64,000 bases of DNA from Bythopirellula sp. Its GTDB lineage: Bacteria; Planctomycetota; Planctomycetia; Pirellulales; Lacipirellulaceae. Location of the stretch: contig OZ244170.1 of NCBI GenBank assembly GCA_965216565.1, positions 4,448,001-4,512,000 on the forward strand, given 5' to 3'. The first letter of the stretch is position 1. Each line of letters starts with the position of its first letter. The notes under the pieces were generated by a model that ran no database searches, had not been told where the DNA came from, and saw only the letters and a list, made by a program, of their open reading frames with translations. Positions 9,924 through 33,616 of the stretch are shown piece after piece. Both the position numbers and the translations under genes were made by a program.

Positions 9924-9928
9924 TTCCC

Positions 9929-13086: not shown

Positions 13087-13332
13087 GCTTGGTTAGGAGG
13101 AAAGTGAGTTTCGGTGCCGTGGAACGCGATTAATACCATTGTACTCGCTCCGAAGAGAAACGGCACCTGGGTAGTCGCGACAACACTAAAGGTGGATGAA
13201 CCACGAAGACACAAAGGGCACGAAGAGCTAACAGGTGTATTACACGAACGAATTAACATTCGTTTACGGTTGTTGCTGTCGAAATCGATTGAGTCGAGCT
13301 GAGAAGATAGCCCCGATAGGGCGACAGACGAT

Positions 13333-14982
13333 CTACCCCACCATCACACCTTCTCGCTCATCTTTCGAGCTGAACTCTGTCTTCGTGCTATCGAATATCT
13401 GTTGGAAGGCATCTGGGCGGACAGCCTTTTGGGAATGCCGGCGGAAAGGGTGTTCGGTTTCTAGTCCCGATTGCTCGACGATTTCGCATGCCAGGGTTTC
13501 GAGCTGGGCGACGTTGGCTGCGAATTGGCGGAAGTATTCGCCGCGGGTTCGTTCCTCTAAGAGCCGCGTGTTCATTTCGCGGATGATCGGCATCTCTGAG
13601 ATGTTGACCGTGCCTGTGGCGGGGAGATCAGCGGTGTCGGCGTGCCACTCGCGGAAGAATTCTTGCATGAATTCGTTGAGCTTGCCCAGTTTGGAGAGTC
13701 GCGACAGGTTCCGCAGGTACATGGTCTGTTCGCACATGCGTCCCTGCATGAAAATGAACGCGGTGATCGACCAGTAGACGAGATAGTCCCAAAGAATTTT
13801 CACTGGCATGACGTTGGGATTGCCGAACATGCAGTATTGGTCCTGATAGGCCTTGGCCGTGCCGTAGTAGAAGCGTTTGAAAATTCGATCGTACGAAAAA
13901 GCACGAATGCGGAACTCTTTGCCGGTGAGGTCGCGGCGAATGAGATCGGTGAGGAACGTGTTGGAGAAGGCGATGAAATCGCTACCGGGGGAGTAGAAGG
14001 GATCGTGAAAAAATCCCGCCTCGCCGGTGATGCCCCAGCGATGCCCGGAGAATACCTGTTTGCATTCGACCGAGTAGTGCTTGATGGCACGGAAGTCTTG
14101 GACGTCGTCAATATGGGCTCGGGCGGCGGCGGCGCATTGGGGTTCGTGCTTGTCGAGCCAGGCGAGCGATTTTTCTAGCGAATTGATATCCGAGAGGTCG
14201 TGGTACTCTTCGGCAGCGACAATGCCCATGCTGGTGGAACCCGAGGCAAGTGGAATCAACCACACCCAATAGCCCTGGCCCATGAGGTGATTGGTGCTGA
14301 AGAAGCGAGCCGTTTTGTCGGCGTGCCCCTCGCTCCACTGGGGATCGTTGCACCAGTCGTCGATCTTGATGTGTTTTTTGAACCGGAACCAGGCGGAGTT
14401 GGCAACGTGGGGCGAGTCCTTCGCCAGATCGAGTTCCCTTTTCAAAAAGCAACGTCGGCCACTGGCATCGACTACCCAGCGGGACTCGACCGATTGCGCG
14501 CCCGCGTTGGTGTGAAAATCGACGCGATGCGACGAGCCGAGACGGCCCATATCGATATTTTTGATGTCGGCCTCGTCAATAAAGCGAATGCCACGTGCCA
14601 GGCACTCGTCGGCCAGGTAGTTTTCGAATCGGCCCCGATCGAGTTGGTAGCTGGGACACGGCGCGTAACGTTTGCCGCCGAGTTCTAAGCGATTCTCGAT
14701 TTGAGAGTTATCACCCGAGGGGAAGAAGAACCGTAGACCGAGTTTGGGTAGCTGATCTTTCAAGATGTGATCGCGGAGGCCCAAGATGCGGCCAAAGTAG
14801 TGCGCTGCGACTTCCACGGTCGACTCGCCAACTTTATGGGCCGCCTCGGGCACGGGATGCTCACGCTTCTCCAATACAGTGATGGACGCTTCCCGCAGCG
14901 ACTGTCGTACTTGCAGCGCCAGCGACAGCCCCGCGAGTCCGCCGCCAAGGATGGTGAGATCTTGTTTTTGTTGGTCCATCAC
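13333..14982 (-). CDS. Flavin-dependent halogenase-like enzyme (copy 2)
   Basis: GGGLAG FAD motif, [15 protein letters not shown] Lys, DASGR, YWVWLIP (WxWxIP) and DPFYSPG. Confidence 0.85.
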
Positions 14983-15016
14983 TGGTTTGTCCTAGTTATG
15001 GTTATTCTTGCGCTGT

Positions 15017-15118
15017 GGAATCGAGAAAAAATAACTTCCGTTTTTTATTAGTTCCCCTCACCCTACCCTCTCCCCAAAGGGGCGAGGGACAGGGGAGAAG
15101 TTATTTTTTCTCGATTCC
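15017..15118. repeat. MITE-like element: perfect 22-bp inverted repeats enclosing a CCCTC-type palindrome
   Basis: GGAATCGAGAAAAAATAACTTC (15017-15038) and its exact reverse complement (15097-15118) flank CCCCTCACCCTACCCTCTCCCCAAAGGGGCGAGGG. Confidence 0.75.
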
Positions 15119-15130
15119 CAGGTTGTTGTT

Positions 15131-15211
15131 GTAGGGTGCGTGGAGCAAAGCGCAACGCACCTGGGTTAAGTTTCCACTTCGTGCGTTTCGTTATCACTTC
15201 ACGCACACTAC
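15131..15211. repeat. GTAG-type REP doublet
   Basis: GTAGGGTGCGTGGAG..AACGCACC followed by the inverted copy GTGCGTT..TTCACGCACACTAC. Confidence 0.7.
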
Positions 15212-15216
15212 GATTC

Positions 15217-16863
15217 TCATATATTCAAAACCTCAAACACGCCATCCAAACGGTTCTCGCTTGCGTGCGAGTTGGGGAGTTCGATTTTCAATTCTGGCTG
15301 AGTTTTTTGGATTCGTTCGGTGATTTCCACCATCAAATCGCGGATGATCTGTACGTTGGCTTCAAAGCGTTGCTTCAAGGTGGCGTCGTCCACCGCTTCG
15401 CGCAGTTCGGCATTGAGCCGGGTCATTAATTCGATTTCGCTTTGGTCGACGAATCCCGCATCGGCACTATCAACGGGGTCGGCCTCGTGCCAATTGCGGA
15501 AAAACTCCTGCATGTTTTTGTTCATCTCGCGGATGTCTTCGATGCCTCCCGAGAGCGAGCGAATGAAGCTGATGTCGGTGAGTTTGTCGTTGAAGTACAG
15601 CAATGCTGGAAAGCCCCAGTAAACGGCGTAGTCCCACACAAACTTAAGCGCCATGATCCGCGGATTGCCAAACAGTGGGTATTGGTCCCGATAGGTAAGC
15701 AGGTTGTTGTGGAACAGTGTGAGGAAAATGCTCTGCAGAGTGGGTGCTGAATGCTCGATGGAATGGCCAGCGAGATCGTCATCGATGAGCTTGGTGATCA
15801 TCGTGTTGCCGATGGCAATGAAGTCGCTGCCAGGGGAATAGAACGGATCGAGCAATGCAGCAGCTTCGCCGGTGAGGGCCCAGCGGTCGGCCGAGAAGAC
15901 CTGTCGGGCGCCGCGGGCGATTTTTTTGATTGCAAGAAAGTCTTGCATCTTGTCGCGATGAGCTTCGACTTGCTCAGCACATTCTGGCTCGTGATGGTGC
16001 AGCCACTCGATGGCCTTCTCGAAGCTGTTCATTTCGGAAAGTGGATGAATCCGCGGGTCGGCGACGATGCCGATGCTGGTGGAGCCAGTCGCCAGGGGAA
16101 TAAGCCACACCCAATAGCCGGCGCCCATGAGGTGATTGGTGCTAAGCCAGCGACGAGGCACCTTGCCGGTGAGAGTTTGCCAATCAGGATCGTCACACCA
16201 CTGATCGATCTGGACTTCCGCGTCGAGCCGAAACCAGACGGCATTGATGTCGTGGCCCAGGTCTTCTTCCAGCTCGAGTTTTCGCTTGAGCAAACTGGCT
16301 CGACCGCTGGCGTCGACCAACCAACGAGCGTTGATCCTGTTTTCGTTACCGTCCTGCTCGAACCGCACTTGATGTGCGGAGTGTTCGCCCGGTTCGCTGT
16401 CCGAGTGAATCCCAATTTCTTTCACCTGGGAACCAGAGTAAATGGTGGCTCCCTGTTCCTGCACCGCATTGGCAAGGTAATTCTCCAGCCGGCCCCGATC
16501 GACCTGATAGCTGGGGGCGGAGAAAAATTCGCTGCCGCCCACTTCGGTGCCTTCAGCGAGCGTTTGGTGCGTGTCTTTAAAAAAGAACCGTAGGCCAAAT
16601 TTTGGCAGTTGATGGTCGGTTAGGTGTTTCTTGAGTTGTAGTTGTTCCCCAAAGTAGTGTGCGCCGATTTCCACCGTCGACTCGCCAACTTTGTGAGCCG
16701 CTTCAGGGACGGGGAACGTTTGTTTTTCGATCACCGCGATCCGCGTTTCGGGACGCTTCATCAGTAGTTGCTTGGTCAGCGTCAAACCGGCCAGGCCTCC
16801 ACCGAGGATGGCCACGTCGTATTGAGAGTCTTCCGTCATGTTGTTTCTGCTTGTGTTAGACAC
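15217..16863 (-). CDS. Flavin-dependent halogenase-like enzyme (copy 1)
   Basis: [39 protein letters not shown] and DPFYSPG; clear paralogue of 13333-14982. The start may be MTEDSQ (16839). Confidence 0.85.
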   Translation of the reverse strand: MSNTSRNNMTEDSQYDVAILGGGLAGLTLTKQLLMKRPETRIAVIEKQTFPVPEAAHKVGESTVEIGAHYFGEQLQLKKHLTDHQLPKFGLRFFFKDTHQTLAEGTEVGGSEFFSAPSYQVDRGRLENYLANAVQEQGATIYSGSQVKEIGIHSDSEPGEHSAHQVRFEQDGNENRINARWLVDASGRASLLKRKLELEEDLGHDINAVWFRLDAEVQIDQWCDDPDWQTLTGKVPRRWLSTNHLMGAGYWVWLIPLATGSTSIGIVADPRIHPLSEMNSFEKAIEWLHHHEPECAEQVEAHRDKMQDFLAIKKIARGARQVFSADRWALTGEAAALLDPFYSPGSDFIAIGNTMITKLIDDDLAGHSIEHSAPTLQSIFLTLFHNNLLTYRDQYPLFGNPRIMALKFVWDYAVYWGFPALLYFNDKLTDISFIRSLSGGIEDIREMNKNMQEFFRNWHEADPVDSADAGFVDQSEIELMTRLNAELREAVDDATLKQRFEANVQIIRDLMVEITERIQKTQPELKIELPNSHASENRLDGVFEVLNI

Positions 16864-16872
16864 AGTGAGTTT

Positions 16873-16992
16873 TTAGCCGCAAAACGCGAGAAACCCCTCC
16901 CCTAGCCCCTTCCCCGCAGACGGGGGAGAGGGATTTAGGTGATCACCCTAAAGTTAAGGCTTCGTCAGTCTTTTTGTGCTTTTCGTGGCAAT
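16873..16992. repeat. Composite palindromic element (degenerate outer arms with a CCCTC-type hairpin inside)
   Basis: Outer arms TAGCCGCAAAACGCGAGAAA and TTTTTGTGCTTTTCGTGGCAA. The inner CCCTCCCCTAGCCCCTTCCCCGCAGACGGGGGAGAGGG resembles the 15054-15088 unit. Confidence 0.55.
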
Positions 16993-17024
16993 AATAGCCC
17001 CGGGTGTTGTGGAATCTTTCTTCA

Positions 17025-20000
17025 CTAACTTGGAACCGACTCGGCAACTTCCTGCACGTGGTCGGCGATTTCGGTGATCCAATATCTTTGTTTTTGGAAG
17101 GGATAGTTGGGTAAGGCAATTCGCTGGCGTGCCCAGGGCTTGTCGAGGGCTGGGAAATCGGGGTTGAAGCCTGACTGATACAATTGTCCCAATGCCGCTA
17201 GTAAGGAACTGCTAGCGTGTGTGTCGCTCGACAGGCTGGGGATGAACCGCGAGGCACTGGCAGCGGTTAACTGTTTCGAGAATTCGTTCATCGAATCCTC
17301 GGGCCCGACTCCCAGTACATATTGGGGATTCGTTGAGTGGAGCACTTCAAGTGCGGCATCACTTGGCGATTCAATGCAGTGGCGACGCCAGTAGCTGCCG
17401 CCCAACGACCGATGGACCGGAATCAACTGGGCATCCAAGCTGCACACTAGCGGCAAGTTCGGCGGATAGTAATTGAACGTATCGGCTAATGCCTCGAATC
17501 GATCGAGGGCAGCACGCTGGTCGTCATTCAAATCGGATTCGTCACTGGAAGGTGGAATATCGAATTCGCTTTGCAATCGTAAACGTTCTGCGATTAACAC
17601 CAGCGCGTCGAAGTAGCAAAGCCCCCCGGCAGCACAAGTCGCTGTGTATTGCCCGATTCCCGTGCCGAACACGGCGTCGGGTTCAATTCCCCACGATTGC
17701 CAAAGCTTGGCGATGCCTGCTTGTAAGGCGTAGAGATGCAGGTCGTTGGTTTCTGGGGGTTCGTGGTGATCAGCGGAGAACCAATCTTGTAGTTGCGAAG
17801 GTAATAGATCGCCCCCAGCGAAGTGGTCTGCCAGCCGCTTATCGAATTCGGTGATGAGACTGCGGAACTCAGGTTCTGCACTGTAGAGCTGGCGGCCGGC
17901 GGTGAGGTCGTCCGAAGCAGTGCCCGCGAAGACGCAGGCGACTTTTGCCGTGGAGGAAGCGGTGGGCGTGCCAGATTTCTTGCCATTGCCATTCACACTG
18001 TAGGCACCGTTGACTTCGGCTTGATTGGCCTTTGCTGCCAGGCGTTCGGACTCCTCGGTGAGCAAACGGTCGAGCCCGTTCAGGAGTTGTTCGCGCGACT
18101 CCGCCAGCAGGGCCACGCGGTGCTCGTGATGGCGGCGACCGACCCCGGCGGTATGGCAGATATCGGCGAGATCCGATTCTGGGTTGGTATCAATGAACTG
18201 GCGATAACGCTGGGCTAACTCGATGAGCGCTGCCGGACTGCGGGCACTGAGTGGGAGTAGATTGGCTGGCCGCTGCACTTCGGGGGCAGGCTCTTCGGCT
18301 GCAGTTTCGTCCGACTGCTCTGCAGAACTCAAGATCACATGAGCGTTGGTGCCGACTAGTCCCAAAGCAGTTACCCCGGCAACCCGTTGTTCTGCCTCGG
18401 GCCAAGCGGTTTGGTCGTTAACTACCTGAACGGGCAGACGCGACCACGGAATATGGGTGCTTGGTTTTTCGAAGTGCACCTGCCGTGGGATTACGCCGCT
18501 ATCGAGTGCGAGCACCGTCTTGATCAAACCAGAGATGCCGCCGGCCGCTTCCAGATGGCTGATATTCGCTTTGACCGAACCGACCAATAGCGGCTGGTCG
18601 CGCTTCCGGCCTTTGCCATAGACAGTTGCTGCGGCACCAAGTTCCATGGCATCGCCAAACTCGGTGCCTGTGCCGTGTGCTTCCAAATATTGCACTTCAC
18701 CTGGTGCGACGCCAGCGTCTTTGATTGCCTCACCAATCATACGGGATTGAGAGCGTCCGCTGGGCGAAGTGATACCGCCACTGAAACCATTGTGTACGAT
18801 CGCCCCGCCGCGGATCACGGCAAGCACACGATCGCCTTGGCGCTGGGCGTCGCTGAGTCGCTTGAGCACCACTACGCCGCAACCTTCGCCACGACCAAAA
18901 CCATTGGCCTCGGCTGAGAAAGATTTGCAGCGGCCATCGGGCGCCAGCAGTCCCGCTTTGCTCATCAACAGTGAATTCACCGGAGCGAGAATCGCGTTCA
19001 CCCCACCAGCCAGTGCCATGTTGCAATTGCCATCTTGCAAGCTGCGGACCGCTTGCAGCACAGCCACCAGGGAACTGCTGCTAGCCGTATCGACGGCGAT
19101 ACTGGGACCTTCGAAACCAAAGATGTAACTAATCCGACCGACACCGGCACTATGCGAGAGCCCCGCCCCTTGGAAGGCCTTGATGATTTCCTCGTCGCCA
19201 AGCCGCGGCAGGAACGCATAGTCCTGTCCCATGATGCCCATGAAGACGCCCACATTGGCGTCGGCCAGTGGTTGTGTGGCGATGCCGGCATGTTCCAGGG
19301 CGTGGTAGCTGTTTTCCAAGAGCAACCGATGTTGTGGGTCAATCCAGCAGGCTTCTTGTGCAGAGATATTGAAAAACTCAGGATCGAATTGGCCTATATC
19401 TTCGAGAAACCCTCCTTCGCGGGTTGGCATTTTGCCCGGGGCGCCCTCAGCATCGTAGAAGTGTTCGATATCCCATCGGTCTGCGGGTATCTCATTTACA
19501 GAATCAACGCCCTGCAGCAGGTTGTCCCAAAACTCGTCGAGATTGTGAGCCCCAGGGAAGCGACAACTCATGCCTACGATGGCGATGTCTTCGCGAGCTT
19601 GCGGCGCGATGTGCGGAGCGTCTGTTGCGGATGCCGCGATGGCAGATGGTTCGGCAGATTCTTCTTCTCCCTGCCCGACGATCATTTCCAGTAGATAATC
19701 GGTGATGGCATCGATGGTTGGATGCTCGAAGAACATGGTCGGACCGATGGCAATGTCATCGCCTAGCAAGCGCGCCAGTTCCGTGCCGAACTCAACGGCC
19801 ATCAGCGAGTCGAGGCCCATTTCGATGAGTGGACGATCGGTTTCCGGCGCTTCGCTGCTAGAGAGGATCTCTCCGATGGTGCCCTGGATGGTCGCCAGCA
19901 GGAGTTCGCGCTGGTCTGGACCGCGTAGTTTCTTGAGCTTTGTGACCAGCTCCGAGTCGCCACTTTGACGGCGACGCGTGGCAGGCATCAGTTCTGCGAG

Positions 20001-23000
20001 CACGGGCGGTGCTTGTCCTCCCATGCTGCTGCGCATCCGTTGCCAATCGACATCAATGGCCAAAGATTGAGTGATCTTCGCCTGCTGCACTTTGCCCAAT
20101 GCTTCGTGTGCTTCGCCTGCGGTCATCGGGGTGATTCCCTGCAGGGCCATTCGCTTGAGGATCCGCTCGTCGTCGGCCATGCCTTCGGTCCACGGTCCCC
20201 AATTGACGCTCGTTGCCGGTAGGCCTTGGGCTCGACGGTGCCAGGCGAGGCCGTCGAGGTACGCGTTGGCTGTGGCGTAGTTACTCTGTCCCGGCGAACC
20301 CAATATCGAAGCGGCCGACGAATAGAGTACGAAGAAATCGAGGTCGAGCGACTTGGTGTGTTCGTGGAGTAGCGTGCTGCCGATGATCTTGGGACCGAGG
20401 ACTTTTTGAAAACGATCCCAAGTTTGATTGGCGAGCAAGGCATCGTCCAACACACCTGCAGCATGAATCACACCCGCTAGCGGCTGGAGATCTTTGCCGA
20501 AGCGAGCGAACAACTTCTCGACGTCCGCCTGATTGCTCAGATTGGCGGAGTGGACAACGACCCGACACCCGGAATGCTCGATTTCATCGAGAATTTGTTG
20601 TGTCGATTCGTCGGGAGCACGACGCGACACGAGCACCACTTCCCCCGCACTCTCGTCGGCAAGCCATTTGGCAGCCAGTCGGCCAAGTTTTCCCAGGCCA
20701 CCGGTGATGAGATAACTGGCGTCTGCTTTGATCTCCAAGTTCCCTGCGGAACGATTGGGTCGCGCTTGCTTCATCCGGGGTACGAGCAACTGCGAATCGC
20801 GAATCGCAAACTGGCTGTCGGTGGTCTCAGCCAGCAAGATTTCTACCAGCGAATTCGCCGGGGCCGCTTGCTCGCTCGCCTCGGGTTCAAGATCGACGAG
20901 TCGACAACGTAGTTCGGGTTGCTCAGCCCCAATCACTCGACCCAAGCCCCAGAATTGGGTCTGGTGCGGATCGACTGTGAGATTCGCTGCGGTTCCATGA
21001 ACCGCGGCCTCGACTGCCCCAACGGTAACTAGCTGTAGTCCGCATTCCAAACCGCGGATTTCTTTTTCTTCCAACGTAGCAATTAAGTGCAGTAGGCCGG
21101 CGCAGTCTGATTGGGTTCCGTTCGGTATTTCATCCAGGGCGTCTGAAGTTTTGTCCTGACGGTTCACAAACCAGCAGATGCCCGCCGGGGCCGATTGAGC
21201 GGCTGACTGTTCGAAGAACTCTTTCCAGTTTTCGTGTTGCATTCCGCAGAATGTATAGTGCGATTCGCCTTGCTCAGAAAAAGCGGTATTTGGCGAAAGG
21301 CTGATTCTCGTTACGGAATGCCCTTCTGCTGTTAACTTCTCAATAGTGTTGCGAGCCAGATCCTTAGGATCGTCCTCATGCTCTATTACCCACCATTGTT
21401 TGGAATCTGTGGTGGCAGGCGGCAGACGCGACGGCTCCCAGCGGAGCTCGTATAGCAGACGCTCGGCGCCCGAGCCACTGAGTTTGCGGAACGCAGCGCG
21501 ATCGAACTGTTGGACTTTGAGCCCTTCGATTTCGACCAACACGTTGCCGGAGTTGTCGAATAGGTGCAGGTCGGCGGTGCGAAGGTTGCCTTCGTTTTGC
21601 GTCCAATGGGCGTGGCACCAAACCTCGCCTTCAATAGGTTGCAGGCAACGAACACGACCAATTCCAACGGGCAGAAACAGGTTGCCGTCGTCGTTTTGCA
21701 GCAGTCCCACGGCTAGGCTGTGCAAAGCCCCGTCGAGCAGCATCGGCGGCAGGGTAAAGCCACGTACATCGCTGTTGGTTGTCAGTTGGGCCAGGACATC
21801 GGTCTGGGAATATCGAAGTGACTGAATCGTTTGGAATTCTGGGCCGTACTGCAGTCCCAATTCGAGCATCTTGGCGTAAAAGTCCTCGGGATTGGCGGAA
21901 TGCTCGCAAGCGGCTTCCACTTGGCTGCGATCAATGACTGCCGGCGCGGGGCGGTCTGTTTTGGCAATTTTCGCGGAGAAGTTGCACTGCCAGTTGGCAC
22001 TGCCGGTAGGCTGCGAGTGAGTTTCGATCGTACGGGTTTTGTCCTCAGCGGTACGAACAATGGTCTGGAGTGTCGTCCGCGCGCTTGGTCGCAGGGGCTG
22101 CTGAAAAGCGATGTCTGTTAACTCACCACCCTCGGCGGCAGCCAAGGCAAGTTCCACGAACGCTGCGCCGGGTACTACAACGTGTTCCATCACCTGATGA
22201 TCGGGCAGCCAGGAGGGGCTGTCGGGTTCTAGGAAACTCTCGAAACGCGATTCGTTTGCGGTCCCCGCGAGAGAGACTTTGCTTCCCAACAGCGGATGGG
22301 CGGTATGGTAGTCGGAGTGAAATGCCCCCGGTTTGTCGGGGCCCCAAAAGCGACGGCGCTGAAAGGGATAAGTCGGGAGCAAAATGCGCTGGCAGGACTT
22401 GCCGGCAAACAGTTCGTCGAAGTTGGGCGTGACGCCGTGAACATAAAGCTGGCCGACGGCTTGGAGAATTGACTCGTTGTCGGAGCTCTCTTTTTGGAGG
22501 CAGCTAATGAGGCTGCTGGGGTCTTGTTTCCAATTAGCGGCCGCCATCCGGGAAAGAACTGCCTGTGGTCCGAGCTCAAGAATCGCATCGCAGCCCATAT
22601 CGTTAAGTGTTTCGATTGCCGTCGAGAATCGAACGGGCTGACGAATGTGTTGCGACCAATAACTTGCGTCTAAAACTGTGTCGGCTGCCACGACTTGGCC
22701 GGTCACATTGCACACCAACGGAATTTGGGTGGGCTGAAAATCGATCTGTGCGGCGAACTGCTGGAACGGTTCCAGCACAGGATCCATCAATGCCGAGTGG
22801 AATGCGTGTGAAGTGGTAAGGGACTTCGTGCGGATGTTGAGCTCTGCAAAACGGTTCTCTGCCTGGGCGACTTTTTCTTCTGCGCCGCTGATAACCAAAT
22901 GGGTGCCATTGAGGGCCGCGAGCGAGAGCCCGCTGCTTTCGATTTCATCTTGGACCGCGTCAAGCGGAGTAAATACGGCAAGCATGCGTCCGCCGGCGGG

Positions 23001-25085
23001 CAAGTCGCCGATGAGCCGGCCGCGCTCGCTAATTAAGCGCAAACCTTCGTCCCACGTCATGACCCCAGCGACGCATGCCGCGGCGTATTGGCCAACGCTG
23101 TGCCCCAGCACGACGTCGGGCTTGAGGCCCCAACTTTCCAGCAACTTGGCCAAGCCCATTTGGACGGCAAAGATTGCCGGCTGGGTCCAACTGGTATGGT
23201 CGATGCGGTCGGGGTGTTCCAGCAGAACTTCTAAGAGCGATCCATCGCGCCACTGGCCGAGCAGTTTCTCGCATGCGTCGATGCTGTCGCGGAACACAGC
23301 TTGCGACTCGTACAGTTCCCGAGCCATGCCGACATACTGCGAACCCTGCCCCGTGAATTGCCAGGCCACCTGCGGCGACTTGCGACGTTGGCTTTGGTAA
23401 AGGGAGTCTGCGCTGCCAGCCCGAGCCAGGGTGTTGAGTAGTTCGACCGCCTGGTTGCTATCGCGAGCCACCAGTGCCGCTCGATGTTCGAAGTGGCTGC
23501 GACCTGTGCAACTGGTGTAAGCAGCATTAGCTAGATCGATCGATTTGTTGCGGGCGATTTCCCGGGCGAATTGCTCCGCCTGTTCGAATAATGCTGTCTC
23601 GCTTTTGCCACTGACAACCATCAGCTGAGGTTCTGTCTGATCAGTATCTGGCAAACCGACTGAGCCGAGCGATTTCTGGGAGGTTTTCGATTCCTGTTGA
23701 GGGCTGTCGAGGGCTTCGATCACCACATGGGCGTTCGTGCCGCTCATGCCAAAAGCGCTAACGCCCGCGATGCGGCGGTCGCTGCCATTGGGCCAAGCCG
23801 TTGCTTCGGTCACCACTTTGACAGGGAGCTGGTCCCAGGGAATATGGGGGTTGGGAGTTTCGAAGTTGAGCTGTGCGGGAATCTTGTTGTGCTCGAGGGC
23901 CAGCAACACCTTGATAAGCCCCGCCATGCCGGCGGCCGCTTCGAGGTGACCGATATTGGTTTTCACGGAACCGACCAACAGCGGATTGTCGACAGTCCGT
24001 TCGCTGGCCAGCGCTGCCGCAGCTGCTTGAAGTTCAATCGGATCTCCAAGCTCGGTCCCAGTTCCATGGGCTTCGAGGTAGTCGACCTCGTTGGCATCGA
24101 CCCCTGCCCTTCCTAGTGCCTGGCGAATCACCTTCTGTTGTGCGCGGGGATTGGGGGCGGTTAGCCCGCTGCTGAATCCATTGTGGCCGACGGCCGAACC
24201 TCGGATCACTCCCAGGATCGGATCACCGTCGCGCTGCGCATCACTCAATCGGCGAATTGTCACCACACCGCAACCTTCACCCCGCAGATAACCGTCGGCA
24301 TCAGCATCGAAGGCGCGCGAATGGCCCTGGGGCGACAAGGCCTTAAGTTTGCAGGTGAGGATGTTGGTAGTTGGCGAGACGATAGCATTCACGCCACCCA
24401 CCAGGGCATGATCGCAATCGCGACGCTGGAGACTTTGAATTGCCAGATGCAAAGCCACGAGCGAAGACGAGCAAGCTGTATCGACCGCGACACTAGGTCC
24501 CTCGAGCCCCAGGAAGTAGGCCAACCGCCCGCAGAGAAAGCTGCCCGCGGCACCGGTGGCAATGTAGGGATTGAGATTCAGAAACGAATCGCTGGCTTCG
24601 TTCTGGTAATCGTTGTGCATCCAGCCGACGAAGATGCCAGTATTTGCACCAATCTGTTCCGGCTGCCAACCGGCCCGTTCTAAGGCTTCCCACCCGACTT
24701 CCATTAGCAGGCGTTGCTGTGGGTCGACCCAGGTCGCTTCGCGTGGCGAGATGCCAAAAAACTCCGGGTCCATTTGATCCAGATCGTCCAGGAACACGCC
24801 ATGACGGGCGTACATTTTGCCGGGGACTTCGGGATCCTCGTTGTAGAACGCGGGCAAGTCCCAACGGTCGTCCGGAATTTCGCTGACTTCATCCGTCTGG
24901 TCAACCAGGCATTGCCAAAACTGCTCGGGCGTGCGCGCCCGGCGAGGAAAGCGACAGGCCATCGAGACGATTGCAATCGGCTCGCCTCCGACCTGCTGGG
25001 CATCGGCGAGCTGTTGTTTCAATTCGCGTATGGCAAGCAGTGCCTGCTTGTTAGGCGAAAGTGGGTTGGAGGGTGAGTCGCTCAT
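17025..25085 (-). CDS. Type I modular PKS: KS-AT-DH-KR-ACP-KS(Cys>Ser)-AT(inactive); no TE
   Basis: KS1 DTACSSS/HGTGT/NIGH; AT1 GHSVG + HAFH (malonyl type); DH HPLLG..HQVMEHVVVP; KR GGLGKLG, LDD, NYATAN; ACP GLDSL; KS2 DTASSSS/HGTGT/NISH; AT2 GTGIG. Start placed at MSDSPS (25085). Confidence 0.93.
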   Translation of the reverse strand: MSDSPSNPLSPNKQALLAIRELKQQLADAQQVGGEPIAIVSMACRFPRRARTPEQFWQCLVDQTDEVSEIPDDRWDLPAFYNEDPEVPGKMYARHGVFLDDLDQMDPEFFGISPREATWVDPQQRLLMEVGWEALERAGWQPEQIGANTGIFVGWMHNDYQNEASDSFLNLNPYIATGAAGSFLCGRLAYFLGLEGPSVAVDTACSSSLVALHLAIQSLQRRDCDHALVGGVNAIVSPTTNILTCKLKALSPQGHSRAFDADADGYLRGEGCGVVTIRRLSDAQRDGDPILGVIRGSAVGHNGFSSGLTAPNPRAQQKVIRQALGRAGVDANEVDYLEAHGTGTELGDPIELQAAAAALASERTVDNPLLVGSVKTNIGHLEAAAGMAGLIKVLLALEHNKIPAQLNFETPNPHIPWDQLPVKVVTEATAWPNGSDRRIAGVSAFGMSGTNAHVVIEALDSPQQESKTSQKSLGSVGLPDTDQTEPQLMVVSGKSETALFEQAEQFAREIARNKSIDLANAAYTSCTGRSHFEHRAALVARDSNQAVELLNTLARAGSADSLYQSQRRKSPQVAWQFTGQGSQYVGMARELYESQAVFRDSIDACEKLLGQWRDGSLLEVLLEHPDRIDHTSWTQPAIFAVQMGLAKLLESWGLKPDVVLGHSVGQYAAACVAGVMTWDEGLRLISERGRLIGDLPAGGRMLAVFTPLDAVQDEIESSGLSLAALNGTHLVISGAEEKVAQAENRFAELNIRTKSLTTSHAFHSALMDPVLEPFQQFAAQIDFQPTQIPLVCNVTGQVVAADTVLDASYWSQHIRQPVRFSTAIETLNDMGCDAILELGPQAVLSRMAAANWKQDPSSLISCLQKESSDNESILQAVGQLYVHGVTPNFDELFAGKSCQRILLPTYPFQRRRFWGPDKPGAFHSDYHTAHPLLGSKVSLAGTANESRFESFLEPDSPSWLPDHQVMEHVVVPGAAFVELALAAAEGGELTDIAFQQPLRPSARTTLQTIVRTAEDKTRTIETHSQPTGSANWQCNFSAKIAKTDRPAPAVIDRSQVEAACEHSANPEDFYAKMLELGLQYGPEFQTIQSLRYSQTDVLAQLTTNSDVRGFTLPPMLLDGALHSLAVGLLQNDDGNLFLPVGIGRVRCLQPIEGEVWCHAHWTQNEGNLRTADLHLFDNSGNVLVEIEGLKVQQFDRAAFRKLSGSGAERLLYELRWEPSRLPPATTDSKQWWVIEHEDDPKDLARNTIEKLTAEGHSVTRISLSPNTAFSEQGESHYTFCGMQHENWKEFFEQSAAQSAPAGICWFVNRQDKTSDALDEIPNGTQSDCAGLLHLIATLEEKEIRGLECGLQLVTVGAVEAAVHGTAANLTVDPHQTQFWGLGRVIGAEQPELRCRLVDLEPEASEQAAPANSLVEILLAETTDSQFAIRDSQLLVPRMKQARPNRSAGNLEIKADASYLITGGLGKLGRLAAKWLADESAGEVVLVSRRAPDESTQQILDEIEHSGCRVVVHSANLSNQADVEKLFARFGKDLQPLAGVIHAAGVLDDALLANQTWDRFQKVLGPKIIGSTLLHEHTKSLDLDFFVLYSSAASILGSPGQSNYATANAYLDGLAWHRRAQGLPATSVNWGPWTEGMADDERILKRMALQGITPMTAGEAHEALGKVQQAKITQSLAIDVDWQRMRSSMGGQAPPVLAELMPATRRRQSGDSELVTKLKKLRGPDQRELLLATIQGTIGEILSSSEAPETDRPLIEMGLDSLMAVEFGTELARLLGDDIAIGPTMFFEHPTIDAITDYLLEMIVGQGEEESAEPSAIAASATDAPHIAPQAREDIAIVGMSCRFPGAHNLDEFWDNLLQGVDSVNEIPADRWDIEHFYDAEGAPGKMPTREGGFLEDIGQFDPEFFNISAQEACWIDPQHRLLLENSYHALEHAGIATQPLADANVGVFMGIMGQDYAFLPRLGDEEIIKAFQGAGLSHSAGVGRISYIFGFEGPSIAVDTASSSSLVAVLQAVRSLQDGNCNMALAGGVNAILAPVNSLLMSKAGLLAPDGRCKSFSAEANGFGRGEGCGVVVLKRLSDAQRQGDRVLAVIRGGAIVHNGFSGGITSPSGRSQSRMIGEAIKDAGVAPGEVQYLEAHGTGTEFGDAMELGAAATVYGKGRKRDQPLLVGSVKANISHLEAAGGISGLIKTVLALDSGVIPRQVHFEKPSTHIPWSRLPVQVVNDQTAWPEAEQRVAGVTALGLVGTNAHVILSSAEQSDETAAEEPAPEVQRPANLLPLSARSPAALIELAQRYRQFIDTNPESDLADICHTAGVGRRHHEHRVALLAESREQLLNGLDRLLTEESERLAAKANQAEVNGAYSVNGNGKKSGTPTASSTAKVACVFAGTASDDLTAGRQLYSAEPEFRSLITEFDKRLADHFAGGDLLPSQLQDWFSADHHEPPETNDLHLYALQAGIAKLWQSWGIEPDAVFGTGIGQYTATCAAGGLCYFDALVLIAERLRLQSEFDIPPSSDESDLNDDQRAALDRFEALADTFNYYPPNLPLVCSLDAQLIPVHRSLGGSYWRRHCIESPSDAALEVLHSTNPQYVLGVGPEDSMNEFSKQLTAASASRFIPSLSSDTHASSSLLAALGQLYQSGFNPDFPALDKPWARQRIALPNYPFQKQRYWITEIADHVQEVAESVPS

Positions 25086-25135
25086 GTTTCTCGGTGGTAT
25101 CGTCTGGATCCTTTTGGAATTCACATCTTTTTCTT

Positions 25136-25204
25136 AACAGGAGGAAACGGAGGAAGCAGAGGAATAGATTGGAACTTTTTCTGTTTTCGCTGTTTCCTGC
25201 TGTT
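25136..25204. repeat. Imperfect purine/pyrimidine inverted repeat
   Basis: AACAGGAGGAAACGGAGGAAGCAGA pairs imperfectly with TCTGTTTTCGCTGTTTCCTGCTGTT, between the ligase and PKS genes. Confidence 0.5.
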
Positions 25205-25266
25205 TGAATCAATTCACTGTCGAATTGAGTTTCTGTTGTTGAGTCTCGTTCTATTGAAACGTGAAT

Positions 25267-27282: not shown

Positions 27283-27327
27283 GGTGTTCGGAGGCTGCTA
27301 CGTTTCGCGTAGCCAGAGTAATTGCAG

Positions 27328-29034
27328 CTAACTGTCGCCAAGAAATTGATGGTAAGATTCCAGCACAGGGGAGATCGAATTGACAATTGCTCCGTCACTG
27401 CCAATTTGATCGACCAAGGCTGCAAGATCTTGCTCCAGCCAACGATCCGAGTCATCCATGAGAAAAGGTTGTTTGCCAGTCGGCTCGCAACCCACCGCAA
27501 GCGTTGCCGCCGTATAAAGGGGTTCTAGTGTTTCGCCCAACAGGGCCCGCCCATCGTAATGCCCGCAAAGCATCTTGGCACGTAAGTCGAGTGCCTGGAT
27601 AGAAAACACCAAGGCAACTGCGGAGTAGTGTTGAAATAGTTCGACCGAACGCCAGGCCATGTTTGCCGATCCCCAGCTCAGACCGTTGATATTTTGGTTA
27701 AATTGCTCGGCATGGGTGGGGAAGTGCTCGACGATTGGGTTGCCCAGGTAGGTGAGCATCGGCATGATCGAATTGCCGGTAATCTGCAATCCCTTCAAAC
27801 CCATGTTGTAGGGCAGTCGATCGTTGCCTCGTAGCGAACTTGGCAAGCCGTTGTTAAAAGATGGCGCGACCAGCGACGCGATCTGCACATCGAGATGCTT
27901 GGCAAGTAAGCCGAGAAAGCGACGCAAATCGTCCATCGCCATACCAACATACTGACCCAGGAAATTGCCACTTTGGTAGAACTGCTCCGACTTGGAATCG
28001 ATCAGCGGATTATCGGAGACCGCGTTCATTTCGGTCTCAACCGTCTCAGTGATTCGAGCCATTCCCTCGATGATGGGGCCCATGTATTGAGGCAAGCAGC
28101 GGAGTGAGTAGCGGTCTTGGATGCCCCCCGGCTGGATCTCAGAATTCGCGGCACCGTTGAGCGCGGCCCGATCTTCTTTGAAGAGCCGATGCATCATATT
28201 AGCCGTCCAGACCTGACCAGGATGGGGCTTGCGGGCGTGGACGAAACCCTCAAAGGGTTCGATTTGCACTTGGAGTGCTTCAAGCATCATGGCTTGCGTG
28301 CAGAGCGCAAGTGCCATGAGCCCGGTCGATTCAGCTATGCAGTTCGCGGCAATCGCCGATGAAAACGACGTGCCATTGACGATGGCTAGACCTTCCTTGG
28401 GACGAAGTTCTAATGGCTCCAAGTTTAATGCTTCCAGCGCAGCCGGGCCGGGTATCTCTTTGTCGCCGAACTCAACGTTGACAGAGTTGCTGTGCCCGGT
28501 GATGGCTCGCGCAATAGCGGAAAGTGGGACGAGATCGCCGCTAGCGCCGATCGACCCCAGTTCACGCACCACGGGAGTAGCACCCGAGTTCAAAAAGTGA
28601 ACGAGCCGTTGGATAATTTCTAGACGTGTGCCAGAGTAACCACGGAACAGGACATTGGCTCGTAGAGCCATCGCGGCCCGGACGTGGCGTTTGTCGACTG
28701 GCTGCCCTGCACCAGTGGCTAGGAACGAGAGCAGATTGTTCTGCGATGCGGCCGCAAGATCGCAGGGCACCGGCACGTCGGCCATTCCACCGAAGCCGGT
28801 GGTAACTCCATAGATCGCCCAGCCTTCGTCAACCGCCCGTTCGACCAAGCCAGCAGCAGTGGCGATGCGCTCAATTCTTGTTGGGTCGTCACTGAGAGAA
28901 AGTTGGCAGGTCGCTTTGCCGATCTCGCAGACTTGCCCAATCTCTAGAGGGGAACCGTCGATCACAAGTTGTGGCGATGAGGAGACCCGCTGATCTTCGG
29001 CTATCAACATATTTTCTTCGCTGCTCGAGAGCAT
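27328..29034 (-). CDS. MIO-dependent aromatic amino acid ammonia-lyase, phenylalanine ammonia-lyase type
   Basis: GSIGASGDLVPL (MIO-forming ASG), IYGVTTGFGGMA, QDRYSLRC, HAEQFNQNIN; the specificity segment SFLATGAG carries Phe-Leu. Confidence 0.88.
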   Translation of the reverse strand: MLSSSEENMLIAEDQRVSSSPQLVIDGSPLEIGQVCEIGKATCQLSLSDDPTRIERIATAAGLVERAVDEGWAIYGVTTGFGGMADVPVPCDLAAASQNNLLSFLATGAGQPVDKRHVRAAMALRANVLFRGYSGTRLEIIQRLVHFLNSGATPVVRELGSIGASGDLVPLSAIARAITGHSNSVNVEFGDKEIPGPAALEALNLEPLELRPKEGLAIVNGTSFSSAIAANCIAESTGLMALALCTQAMMLEALQVQIEPFEGFVHARKPHPGQVWTANMMHRLFKEDRAALNGAANSEIQPGGIQDRYSLRCLPQYMGPIIEGMARITETVETEMNAVSDNPLIDSKSEQFYQSGNFLGQYVGMAMDDLRRFLGLLAKHLDVQIASLVAPSFNNGLPSSLRGNDRLPYNMGLKGLQITGNSIMPMLTYLGNPIVEHFPTHAEQFNQNINGLSWGSANMAWRSVELFQHYSAVALVFSIQALDLRAKMLCGHYDGRALLGETLEPLYTAATLAVGCEPTGKQPFLMDDSDRWLEQDLAALVDQIGSDGAIVNSISPVLESYHQFLGDS

Positions 29035-29354
29035 CTTGCCCTTTAATGTGCCTACGCTTTTGCGGTCGGTGCGGTAATCTTTGGGGAACGTCGGGACACG
29101 TTTAGGTAATTTGCGTTAACTGTCGAATTGGCCGGTTATTCTAATAGAATTTCTAGGCGTGAAACAGTTGCTGGAAACCGAACGATCGTCTGCTTCCCTG
29201 AGAATACGACAGATTGGCTTGATTCGTTCAGGGTGGTCGGCACCGAGGATTGGCGCCGACACGGGCTGCTGGGAGTGGGTTTCAGAGATAAGTCCCGGTT
29301 GACTAGGCACTTAAGTCAGATTGCCATTCGCCCCCAGAGCGAGTGGCACCTTGT

Positions 29355-32300: not shown

Positions 32301-32504
32301 TTCTTCAAGCGGAATGGTGACCAACGATTCAACCCGTCGCGCGTCGGCACCAGGGAAGACTGTGCTAATCACCGCGACCCGTTTACCGAGAATGGGGTCT
32401 TCTAGCCGAGGGATTACGAAGAACGACGACAAGCCCGCTACCACAATCACCAGGATTATCAGCAGCAAGATGCGAGGATTTCTGTAAAGAAATTGGGCAA
32501 TCAT
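29355..32504 (-). CDS. RND efflux transporter permease (AcrB/AcrD/AcrF family)
   Basis: 1049 aa with two TM bundles; ALGLLIDNAIV, GVAINDSIV and PLAITVAGG. Confidence 0.93.
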   Translation of the reverse strand: MIAQFLYRNPRILLLIILVIVVAGLSSFFVIPRLEDPILGKRVAVISTVFPGADARRVESLVTIPLEEQLQGITEIDEVRSNSRAGISNIVLELTDDAQDVDAVWSLVRGRVEDAKARMPAGCREPAFEIFPLKAYAAIIAIKPRNPQAPINSILRKLAGQLRLSIGNIRGTESVAIFGDPGEEFVAEIEPTVFAGLGVPIGAIARQVADSNVTQPAGSMQGVGSGMSVDVENNVSTRQQLADTLVQIGAGSAPRKLSDLATVKKRLTQPPGEWALVDGQPAIVLGALVDNQMRVDRWAKSLDSAISRFQDKYSADLVVEIIFSQSDYIESRLHLLLKNLLLGAGAVTAVVLLLMGWRSMLVVGVTLPLASLMVLAGMRILEIPLHQMSITGLIVALGLLIDNAIVMVEDVRSRIIAGKSPARAISLGIRHLAMPLFGSSMTTALAFMPIATLPGPPGEFVGTIAMSVILAIASSFLLAMTVVPALLALLRIDSGSRSLVDYGFSSRLLTGIYRWTLQIVFRFPVLGILLGMALPALGFYVARDLPEQFFPASDRNQIQIEVELPAREPIEQTLATVRSIEQTVDTFSEVERSHWFVGRSAPTFYYNVVPRRRGTPFYAQAILDLAADADFGDTVLRMQAQLDQEFAQCRVIVRQLEQGPPFDAPIEIRLAGPDLSRLQQLGGELRVLLSQTSSVIHTRSDSEETIPKLVVQVDSEKLARAGLSEMEVAQQLYTMLDGAPAGKILDGDEELPVRIKMAETGSNQIDRLAALQLPIATQNLPGGPPMTNPPTSASPNTGPPPPRTVPLAALASLELGSNVAAIVRINGQRTNEVKAYITAGVLPSTVVADFKRRLAESDFSLPPGYEMTFKGENAERTAAVESLIANAVVLFAMMILTLVISFRSFRYALIVIVVGALAAALGPLALWLFDYPFGFMAIVGTMGLVGVAINDSIVVLAAIRENPEARRGNVSELVEVVVGSTRHIIATTITTMVGFTPLILGGGRFWPPLAITVAGGVGGATILALYFVPCLSRILHGPSSWPSDRASSA

Positions 32505-33616
32505 TCACTCAGCCTGGGCCCAGGTTGCTCGAATGAATAGGCCAAGGTGCTGGCAGCCACGCGCTGGCCCGGCACCACGCGATTCGATCCGTTGACGATC
32601 ACCAAGTCGCCATTCTCGAGTGATCCTTGGACCAGTGCATGATCGTCGGCAAGTTGCAGGAGTTCTAGGACGCGCCGCCTTACTAGCTGACGATCGTCGT
32701 CTTGCTCCACAACCAGGGCCGACCAAAGTCCATCGGCTTCCCGCTGAAGTGCCGAGAGTGGCAGCCAAAAACCCGTGGCATTGGAGTTGGTGCGAAACTG
32801 AGCCTCGACCGTGCTGCCAAACACCCAGTCTACATTGGGATCGGTATCGGAAATTTCAAGCGTGATTAACTGGGTGTGCGACGAAGGGGATAGCTCTGGC
32901 GATTTGCTGCTCACTGTTGCGGCGATCGCCCGATCTTGGTGTTCGACGCTGAGCAATTCGCCTACTTCAATTTGCTCCGCAACGCGCGAGGCGACTTGGA
33001 GTTCGACAATGGGAGCATCGCCCGCGACAATTTTCAAGATGGGGTTGCCACGGGGAACCTGATTGCCCACGTTGGCTTTCCGCTCAGCAATTATGCCGTC
33101 GTAAGGGGCCAAGATCGTGCGACTGTCGATCTCGCGATCGATTTCTTGCCGCTTCTGGTTGAGGGAATCGACCTCCTGTCGCAAGCGGCTGATCTCGCGC
33201 TGCACGTTGGATGATCGGTTGTTGGGATTGAGCCTTTCGAGTCGTTCCTCAGCCGAAGCGATGGCCTCGTCGAGTTCTGTTTGCTGGTCGAGTAGATCTT
33301 GCTGTTGAAGAATGGCAAGTTTTTCGTTGGCTTCAACTCGGTTTCCAACGTCCTTGAAGATCTCCGCGATCTGGCCGCCCCGTGCGAAGGCGAGATAGCT
33401 CGATCGTTTTGGTTTGACCGTCCCAAAGCAAGTATGAGTATCGAAGACTTCTTCGCTGAGCGCCACTTCAATGACATTCACAGTAAGTGGTGTAGGATTC
33501 GAGTCGACTGCCGTCTCGGAAACTCTCGCCGGATCCTGCGGGCCGATACAGCCTAAGGAGGTTGCAAGAGCGCTGGTTAACAACCCAATTGAAAGAAGTG
33601 TGCGATCGATAGCCAT
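32501..33616 (-). CDS. RND periplasmic adaptor (membrane fusion protein), probable lipoprotein
   Basis: Lipobox-like SLGC, a coiled-coil hairpin, ILAPYDGII and RVVPGQRV; 4-bp overlap with the permease gene. Confidence 0.9.
   Translation of the reverse strand: MAIDRTLLSIGLLTSALATSLGCIGPQDPARVSETAVDSNPTPLTVNVIEVALSEEVFDTHTCFGTVKPKRSSYLAFARGGQIAEIFKDVGNRVEANEKLAILQQQDLLDQQTELDEAIASAEERLERLNPNNRSSNVQREISRLRQEVDSLNQKRQEIDREIDSRTILAPYDGIIAERKANVGNQVPRGNPILKIVAGDAPIVELQVASRVAEQIEVGELLSVEHQDRAIAATVSSKSPELSPSSHTQLITLEISDTDPNVDWVFGSTVEAQFRTNSNATGFWLPLSALQREADGLWSALVVEQDDDRQLVRRRVLELLQLADDHALVQGSLENGDLVIVNGSNRVVPGQRVAASTLAYSFEQPGPRLSE

Follow-up and report, generated by a model that had tools for sequence, protein, structure and literature searches.

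Which product could a planctomycete make and export with a phenylalanine ammonia-lyase, a ligase carrying its own carrier domain, one type I polyketide synthase (PKS) and two halogenases? The question is raised by a stretch of 64,000 nucleotides of Bythopirellula sp. (contig OZ244170.1, positions 4,448,001 to 4,512,000; the whole stretch is called the window here), whose source genome is a single contig of 5.21 Mb. We give a little better than an even chance to the reading that seven adjacent genes at 13333-33616 form a cassette for the biosynthesis and export of an iteratively built, halogenated phenyl-polyene from phenylalanine. As the original prediction had it, all seven open reading frames (ORFs) are co-oriented, on the minus strand, and each of its gene assignments is backed by both Pfam and NCBIfam:

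32501..33616, minus strand: membrane fusion protein (MFP, periplasmic adaptor), 371 aa; HlyD_D23, HlyD_3, RND_mfp TIGR01730
29355..32504, minus strand: RND inner-membrane permease, 1049 aa; PF00873 ACR_tran
27328..29034, minus strand: phenylalanine ammonia-lyase (PAL) dependent on 4-methylideneimidazole-5-one (MIO), 568 aa; Lyase_aromatic PF00221
25267..27282, minus strand: acyl-AMP ligase-acyl carrier protein (ligase-ACP, an A-ACP loading didomain), 671 aa; AMP-binding, AMP-binding_C, PP-binding
17025..25124, minus strand: type I PKS, 2699 aa (longest ORF); Pfam ketosynthase (KS), acyltransferase (AT), dehydratase (DH), ketoreductase (KR) and ACP
15217..16863, minus strand: flavin-dependent halogenase 1 (HAL1), 548 aa; PF04820 Trp_halogenase, FAD_binding_3
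13333..14982, minus strand: flavin-dependent halogenase 2 (HAL2), 549 aa; PF04820 Trp_halogenase, FAD_binding_3

The seven-gene unit and its conservation

We examined how far this arrangement is shared by relatives, labelled G for related genomes, L for loci from a halogenase scan and P for PKS-family proteins. Full-length ligase-ACP orthologues with 58-61% identity occur in five of 40 related genomes, four of the 24 from the same genus and one of the 16 from other families of the order; with the window's own genome counted, 5 of the 25 sampled members of the genus carry the cassette. By tblastn of the seven proteins, G018 and G004 hold all seven genes in unchanged order, G016 and G003 continue the gene set to their contig ends with only part of it visible, and G027 keeps the five biosynthetic genes with the RND gene on the opposite strand. 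The RND permease is 63-67% identical in G018, G016 and G004, and MFP orthologues adjoin the cluster in these three as well as in G110 and L038. When 400 genomes were sampled evenly across the phylum, two of them, G110 and G135, both from a single genus of another order than the window's, had a HAL1 orthologue (61% identity) with a second halogenase gene directly adjoining; relatives at 37-48% were present in seven more. The gene order in G110 is PAL-LIG-PKS-HAL1-HAL2-MFP-RND, with the pump pair at the opposite end.

Genome contigs were also scanned with a halogenase alignment. Of the first 631 pattern matches, at least 618 were confirmed as relatives, and 69 loci were returned. The scan added about 14 further planctomycete loci from metagenome-assembled genomes (MAGs) with these genes in synteny. 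Wherever planctomycete loci had adequate upstream sequence, the PKS (53-64% identity) stood directly before HAL1-HAL2 (12 of 12), with the ligase preceding the PKS in 10 of the 12. MFP/RND genes lie downstream of the halogenases in L038 and L036, and in L032 the two halogenases are paired with MFP-RND. On L032, a 13.5-kb MAG contig, MFP-RND come after the divergently placed halogenases; an aminotransferase and a sulfatase, and no PKS, are encoded in the 6 kb upstream, and the pathway may be split in that genome. Together with more than 100 clusters of PKS sequences in metagenomes, these loci make the cassette a family and not a one-off.

The surroundings of the unit are not shared. Genes past HAL2 vary between genomes (LarA, DUF2141, DUF4380, VKGC-like), and none of the 78 related sequences searched held a homologue, at E ≤ 1e-5, of the flanking ORFs at 33869-35374 and 10840-13086. 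Both genes were rejected as cluster members on these grounds. The first (minus strand, 501 aa) has no Pfam family and a sub-threshold PEP-CTERM-like C-terminus (E 7.6e-4). The second (minus strand, 748 aa), directly downstream of HAL2, combines multihaem cytochrome c motifs with HEAT and TPR repeats. Just outside the cluster, 9207-10795 on the plus strand holds a DUF5131 (phage Gp37/Gp68-like) gene and, immediately behind it, TcmP, a 'three-Cys-motif partner' (TIGR04474, 133 bits). Because the pump switches ends within the unit while the flanks change, the cluster boundaries are fixed and the pump is tied to the pathway: the conserved unit is the seven genes, pump included, and the synteny across relatives is a non-chance arrangement. 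As for the predicted RND exporter of the pathway, the RND-MFP pair does belong to the cluster, since it stays with the biosynthetic genes in G018, L038 and G110.

Within the window's cluster, the MFP stop and the RND start overlap by 4 nt, and the other intergenic gaps are 320 nt (RND-PAL, with no small ORF of note), 45 nt (PAL-ligase), 142 nt (ligase-PKS), 161 nt (PKS-HAL1) and 234 nt (HAL1-HAL2). In G027 and L023 the cluster genes lie end to end or overlap, as would fit an operon. Promoter-like sites in 12800-32700 (5 against 8.7 ± 3.4 in shuffles) and terminator-like sites there (26 against 22 ± 5) were uninformative on transcription units. No Rfam match was obtained in 12500-36000 and no tRNA in the 64-kb window. 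The G+C content is 0.567-0.586 over most of the PKS (18001-26000) and about 0.51-0.55 in the flanks; the higher G+C of the PKS and the patchy distribution may reflect horizontal acquisition of the cluster.

The MFP scored 122.2 bits against TIGR01730 (cut-off 94.9). In the RND protein, ACR_tran spans residues 3-1035 and profile positions 2-1020 of 1021 (E 2.4e-131), so a full-length AcrB-family permease and a periplasmic adaptor are both present. The permease stayed below the cut-off of every NCBIfam subfamily and is for this reason regarded as a divergent RND. No outer-membrane factor was found within the cluster, the only part of the genome searched for one. A role of the pump in export is suggested by sequence and gene context.

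Starter unit and polyketide synthase

PAL matched Lyase_aromatic PF00221 (E 2.6e-131), and its best solved relative was 9EQ5, the structure of PbPAL from Planctomyces brasiliensis (E 2.5e-192, 643.8 bits), followed by AvPAL and NpPAL from Anabaena and Nostoc. The MIO-forming ASG triad lies in GSIGASGD, GSIGASGDLVPL aligns with PbPAL, and the F-L selectivity pair stands in NNLLSFLATG opposite DNLLAFLSTS of PbPAL. The PbPAL paper demonstrates its PAL activity by assay, cites the Phe-Leu selectivity rule and remarks on the polyketide/fatty-acid operon context of such PALs (PMC5651878). All three known enzymes (E 2.5e-192 to 1e-155) share the length class, ASG triad and F-L pair of the window PAL, and no difference from it was detected at the sequence level. 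Against the NCBIfam equivalog TIGR01226, PAL scored 369.7 bits, below the cut-off of 519.15, with a match to the first 502 of 680 positions; we attribute this shortfall to the model's eukaryote-length 680 positions. Judged by its residues, PAL is a Phe-specific enzyme of the short bacterial PbPAL/AvPAL type. The triad, the F-L pair and the assayed nearest relative support the predicted production of cinnamate.

The ligase has its carrier domain (PP-binding) at 546-611 with an LDSL serine, and among solved structures it comes closest to feruloyl-CoA synthetase (8wev, E 1.7e-91), FadD13 and the plant 4-coumarate-CoA ligase 2. The predicted adenylation-ACP didomain is thus present, with its AMP-binding and carrier parts, in a neighbourhood compatible with the activation of cinnamate, its putative substrate. 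Among family members, P0026 (3354 aa, with AMP-binding domains) apparently has the ligase-ACP fused to the PKS. The window's genome carries two phosphopantetheinyl transferase genes, so holo-carrier formation is possible.

The PKS, which the source's own gene call renders as 2686 aa (P0006) instead of the 2699 aa of the longest ORF, has the domain order KS1-AT1-DH-KR-ACP-KS2(Ser)-AT2(dead):

23715..24983, minus strand: KS1, aa 48-470; Cys218 in DTACSSS, both His
22425..23369, minus strand: AT1, aa 586-900; GHS676VGQ, HAFH
21480..22298, minus strand: DH, aa 943-1215; catalytic His in HQVMEHVVVP
20175..20720, minus strand: KR, aa 1469-1650; LDD, catalytic Tyr in SNYATANAY
19692..19892, minus strand: ACP, aa 1745-1811; GLDSL serine
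18315..19592, minus strand: KS2, aa 1845-2270; Ser2015 in DTASSSS in place of Cys, His kept in EAHGTGT and NISHLE
17028..17924, minus strand: AT2 remnant, aa about 2401-2699; GHSxG replaced by GTGIG

The catalytic residues of module 1 (KS Cys-His-His, AT GHSxG, DH His, KR Tyr and ACP Ser) are complete and conserved in orthologues. The Gly of the DH motif is Glu in the window; it is Gly in four of five aligned orthologues and Asp in G003. An AT HAFH motif indicates malonyl specificity, and a KR LDD motif the B type, which gives an E-alkene after dehydration. By these motif rules, module 1 would be malonyl-specific, with a B-type KR, and would yield an E-enoyl product. The motifs thus support the predicted malonyl KS-AT-DH-KR module; the PKS, however, is not the single module that had been predicted, as it ends in an extra KS-AT and has no thioesterase. 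No enoylreductase (ER) domain is present, and neither the PKS nor any other of the seven genes had a Pfam match to a thioesterase, Condensation or reductase domain. A PKS with a KS(Ser)-AT(dead) and without a thioesterase suggests non-textbook release or chain-length control.

The second KS-AT didomain follows the ACP and, at residues about 1845-2699, ends the PKS. We searched with residues 1840-2699 as the query and, among the best 120 of 7998 scored proteins, examined 111 PKS sequences of family length, in which the window protein appears twice and one ligase-fused form is included. Two KS motifs were obtained from 110 of these, invariably with Cys in the first KS and Ser in the second; the remaining one, P0119, gave a single KS motif only. 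EAHGTGT of KS2 and both His are kept in 111 of 111. In AT2, the nucleophile Ser position is occupied by Gly in 107 of the 111 (the other four gave no match to the motif expression), and the His is lost. Measured against the window protein, 109 family sequences have mean identities of 0.82 (KS1), 0.78 (KS2), 0.61 (AT1) and 0.41 (AT2). A maximum-likelihood tree of 42 KS domains, which took its outgroups from the best matches to the KS2-AT2 region and held no reference iterative KSs, placed the KS1 and KS2 clades as sisters with support of 96/95. On this sequence evidence, KS2-AT2 is an old internal duplicate whose KS2 appears to be under selection like an active KS and whose AT2 appears to be a degenerate scaffold. 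We rejected the idea that the didomain is a recent pseudogene left over from a second module that has since been lost, as the Ser and both His are invariant and KS2 is conserved like KS1.

The literature searched, whose coverage left out subscription journals, yielded no precedent for a KS domain with a Cys-to-Ser exchange or for a KS(Ser)-AT didomain at the end of a PKS. The closest parallels are the type II KS-alpha/KS-beta pairs with their chain-length factor (CLF) and the KS-CLF of polyunsaturated fatty acid synthases, in which, as in KS2, a duplicated KS has lost its Cys and is highly conserved beside an active KS. CLFs carry Gln, whereas KS2 carries Ser and keeps both His. Unlike a CLF, KS2 also drags along a dead AT and follows the ACP within a type I chain, and a heterodimer would here be hypothetical. 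Separately, P0104 (3077 aa) has a DTASSSS ketosynthase at its N-terminus (residue 140); Ser-ketosynthases therefore occur at other positions.

Two halogenases and their aryl-polyene kin

We aligned eight HAL1 and HAL2 sequences, orthologues included (HAL1 orthologues start near Met9), and found four features in 8 of 8. These are GGGLAGL, the GxGxxG FAD-binding motif; GYWVW(L/M)IPL, the WxWxIP motif; (L/F)(L/H)DPFYSPG, which resembles FxxPxxSxG and begins with F in HAL2 and L in HAL1; and K88 in LPKFGLRF, a candidate for the lysine that would bear the chloramine or hypohalite in catalysis. This last stretch resembles FPKKFGAAW of PltA; HMMER aligns the PltA lysines elsewhere, and the predicted local distance difference test (pLDDT) of the model is below 50 there. 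WxWxIP is the signature that separates flavin-dependent halogenases from monooxygenases. The two proteins are 43% identical to each other in the alignment. Pfam PF04820 scored 44.8 and 52.3 bits for the two halogenases, and the CmlS model 60.5 and 71.5 bits against a cut-off of 900. Solved relatives by sequence are PltA, 3nix (an unassigned Cytophaga flavoprotein), Mpy16, CtcP, Bmp2, ChlB4, CndH, MalA and CmlS. Nearly all of the top 45 Foldseek matches of the HAL1 model are halogenases (TM-scores by target 0.45-0.71), including PltM, PltA, CtcP, FasV, RadH, ChlB4, CndH, Mpy16, CmlS, MalA and Bmp2. Motifs and predicted fold thus indicate that HAL1 and HAL2 are flavin-dependent halogenases. They share the fold and the FAD and halogenase motifs with the carrier-dependent variant B halogenases (PltA, Mpy16, Bmp2, ChlB4, CndH, CmlS) at only 15-20% identity in structural alignments. 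They differ from these in a longer C-terminal helical region, with about 190 aa that match no Pfam family, and in a predicted substrate that is neither pyrrole nor phenol.

The kinship of the two enzymes was resolved by a FastTree phylogeny of 102 halogenases with SH-like support. The 14 sequences of the HAL1 lineage form the sister clade of 14 halogenases from an aryl-polyene context (support 0.914), and the HAL2 clade (17 planctomycete sequences) groups with two aryl-polyene-context and two short-contig halogenases (support 0.977). Halogenases of Actinobacteria and Chloroflexi linked to type I PKSs form a separate clade of 20. By this phylogeny, HAL1 and HAL2 are two old lineages, both with aryl-polyene kin, and a recent tandem duplication was rejected. 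The 69 loci of the scan comprise 16 with a homologue of a CLF-like aryl-polyene marker, two more with other aryl-polyene genes, about 16 that are the planctomycete cassette or fragments of it, and 10 with another single KS-AT-DH-KR-ACP PKS (Actinobacteria, Chloroflexi and one Xanthobacteraceae MAG). In six actinobacterial loci, L069 (Streptomyces sp.), L073, L079, L081, L082 and L086, two to three halogenases of the wider family are accompanied by BTAD regulators, a pair of DUF1702 genes, a type II thioesterase and a PKS of about 1900 aa with the order KS-AT-DH-KR-ACP. The halogenases and KSs of these loci group in clades apart from the planctomycete ones, and a literature search on DUF1702 and polyketides gave genome surveys only.

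The type II xanthomonadin and aryl-polyene (APE) systems of Proteobacteria such as Xanthomonas and Lysobacter resemble the cassette in several respects. They load a ligase-activated aryl acid on a carrier, extend it to a polyene with malonyl units using KR and DH and no ER, have an RND-superfamily membrane exporter, and use halogenases of the same lineages as HAL1 and HAL2 (41-48% identity). According to PMC3691225, xanthomonadin clusters include a halogenase and the pigments bear zero to two Br. Only the xanthomonadin/APE systems have a discrete KS/CLF, ApeI/ApeP, GT2, an LpxL-like protein and a chorismatase-derived hydroxybenzoate starter; only the cassette relies on a type I megasynthase and on a non-phenolic starter supplied by PAL. 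L059 (Alteromonas) shows a full xanthomonadin-type set around its halogenase, namely KS, CLF-like protein, ApeI- and ApeP-like dehydratases, GT2, LpxL-like acyltransferase, AMP ligase and an FkbO/XanB2-like chorismatase. When this set was compared with the planctomycete loci by tblastn, the KS alone gave matches, which were weak (24-32%), and none was obtained for the CLF-like protein, ApeI, ApeP, LpxL or GT2; Pfam found no APE markers among the window genes. Since the discrete KS/CLF, ApeI/ApeP and lipid-anchoring transferases are absent, the cassette is, by its gene content, a type I, PAL-primed counterpart of the xanthomonadin/APE pathways and not a member of them.

Two further systems were compared. 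Celluxanthene of Clostridium thermocellum (CexF, PMC12144888), compared here by its description, is an aryl-polyene proposed to arise from an iterative type I PKS, an AMP-dependent synthetase and carriers; it differs in having no PAL, halogenases or RND pump and in a KASIII-type head-to-head fusion to a tetronate. L045 (Xanthobacteraceae MAG, 93-20239) has the same front end in the same order: a fragment of a PAL, the ligase-ACP, a KS-AT-DH-KR-ACP protein of 1794 aa and a wider-family halogenase. The KS(Ser)-AT is missing from this locus, which goes on to encode a nonribosomal peptide synthetase C-A-T-TE, a patatin, a glycosyltransferase and an ABC1 kinase; its KS is not closely related. By its domains, L045 looks like a cinnamate-primed polyketide-amino-acid hybrid with conventional release. 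As the shared front end is released there by C-A-T-TE, the comparison suggests that the KS(Ser)-AT didomain stands in place of a release device. The view that the gene set is not a known cluster held up, as no description was found in the literature searched, with most subscription journals outside its coverage. The terms sought for this cluster were absent from a review of planctomycete secondary metabolism (PMC12078418), and members of the PKS family carry generic names in the source records ('SDR family NAD(P)-dependent oxidoreductase', 'acyl transferase domain-containing protein').

Proposed pathway and its alternatives

In the pathway that we propose, PAL would deaminate L-Phe to cinnamate, which the ligase-ACP would adenylate and load onto its own carrier domain. 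KS1 would accept the cinnamoyl starter, and the single AT-KR-DH-ACP set would extend it with malonyl units, each giving an E-double bond, probably in several rounds that would lead to an all-E phenyl-polyenoyl-S-ACP. The two halogenases would add one or two halogens, probably on the carrier-bound chain and likely at a polyene or enol carbon and not on the phenyl ring, as the starter is plain cinnamate with an unactivated ring. KS2(Ser)-AT(dead) would replace the missing thioesterase, act as a chain-length factor, or both: KS2(Ser) might measure the chain, accept it as an oxyester that is then hydrolysed or transferred, or combine the two. The MFP-RND pair would then carry the product out of the cytoplasmic membrane. 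Chain length, iteration, the halogen and its position, release and the role of KS2 are all to be read here as predictions.

The original prediction named a 5-phenylpentadienoyl scaffold, with a phenylpolyene as its iterative option. We favour the latter and regard the former as less likely, because both halogenase lineages sit in aryl-polyene/xanthomonadin clusters. Iteration is plausible by analogy, given the missing ER, the lack of a downstream module, the L045 relative and the documented precedents. Bacterial iterative type I PKSs for polyenes or aryl-polyenes include CexF and RerA, a Rhodococcus polyene synthase (PMC11563203); RerA was rejected as a relative for its enediyne/PUFA-like KS-AT-ACP-ACP-KR-DH layout and serves as a precedent for iterative polyene formation only. 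The predicted halogenation of the scaffold stands as a proposal by analogy, with nearest solved halogenases that act mostly on carrier-bound substrates.

Several observations weigh against this iterative, halogenated phenyl-polyene. A single extension round fits the PKS domains equally well, KS1 nests among ordinary multi-KS PKS proteins in the 42-domain tree, and the top NCBIfam match of the ligase is a fatty-acid ligase subfamily, below its cut-off. HMMER places the PltA Lys pair opposite a different, non-conserved HAL1 position, and the AlphaFold model of HAL1 has a moderate mean pLDDT of 72.5, with the region of the presumed catalytic Lys below 50. Flavin halogenases normally require electron-rich substrates. 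Plain cinnamate is not electron-rich and the conserved seven-gene unit holds no hydroxylase, so the halogenation target is uncertain. Cultured Bythopirellula and Aeoliella are described in PMC13315336 as white to cream, with type I PKS clusters unassigned. This colour misfits a long coloured polyene only if the cultured strains carry and express the cluster; should they carry it, the coloured polyene would be silent in culture or the chain short.

A rival is a non-iterative scheme, which we consider unlikely, though not negligible: the module would act once, and the product, a halogenated 5-phenylpenta-2,4-dienoic acid or one of its simple derivatives, would absorb UV without being a pigment. 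The corresponding 5-phenyl-2,4-pentadienoyl is an intermediate of Photorhabdus stilbene biosynthesis. One complete module with one ACP, the grouping of KS1 with KSs of multi-module proteins and the unpigmented cultured members of the genus (PMC13315336) also speak for it. Yet both halogenase lineages otherwise occur in polyene-making clusters, and a conserved, catalytically equipped second KS would have no obvious job in a one-round system. Stand-alone KS-AT-DH-KR-ACP modules without a partner, moreover, usually iterate, as in the polycyclic tetramate macrolactam synthases. Somewhat more credible, if still doubtful, is a cryptic or chain-directed halogenation of beta-keto/enol or polyene carbons, in which the halide would serve elimination, cyclisation or release, possibly via KS(Ser), and the final product would carry no halogen or a vinyl halide. 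It would suit the unactivated starter ring and the absence of a hydroxylase, and the nearest solved relatives include the alkyl halogenase CmlS and the carrier-dependent PltA, Mpy16, Bmp2 and ChlB4. Xanthomonadin I, with one Br on the polyene, points the same way. Against it, no enzyme of the HAL clade has a demonstrated substrate, and the cluster shows no enzyme for dehalogenation or cyclisation.

Two alternatives concern single components of the cassette. The RND-MFP pair could be a general efflux pump that is merely nearby, as the 320-nt gap before PAL, the missing outer-membrane factor gene and the scores below all NCBIfam subfamily cut-offs would allow; we regard this as improbable, since MFP-RND stay with the biosynthetic genes in at least four arrangements across orders in which the other neighbours all change. 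Less probable still is that the two flavoenzymes are no halogenases and instead hydroxylate or reduce the polyene or aryl group. They match models of geranylgeranyl reductase, LodB/QhpG and UbiH weakly and score low against all halogenase models, which would agree with such a role, but WxWxIP, the FxxPxxSxG-like motif and one Lys are invariant in HAL1 and HAL2, and the sequence and fold matches are mostly to proven halogenases.

Returning to the halogenated phenyl-polyene, we tentatively put forward a more far-reaching version of it, which we hold to be possible but rather less than likely. The KS(Ser)-AT(dead) would be a new type I PKS device, a chain-length factor or serine off-loader, in a PAL-primed counterpart of the xanthomonadin pathway that halogenates carrier-bound phenyl-polyene or enol carbons. 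To our knowledge, a carrier-bound phenyl-polyene is a substrate class not shown for this halogenase family.

The cassette is clean, widely recurring and uncharacterised; what stands out in it enzymologically is the didomain with the Ser-ketosynthase and the question of what is halogenated, and it is not a categorically new system. It would be of modest interest if its product were merely a small halogenated phenylpentadienoate. We know of hardly any planctomycete natural product that has been linked to genes, and these seven genes of about 20 kb, which recur in many marine and other planctomycete metagenome bins, offer a compact and well-bounded target for heterologous expression. They raise the question of how a type I PKS without a thioesterase, and with an invariant Ser-His-His ketosynthase, ends or measures its chain, and that of the true target of the xanthomonadin-lineage halogenases, even in Xanthomonas. 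They also raise the question of whether aryl-polyene-type envelope lipids may have had a second origin, on a type I scaffold.

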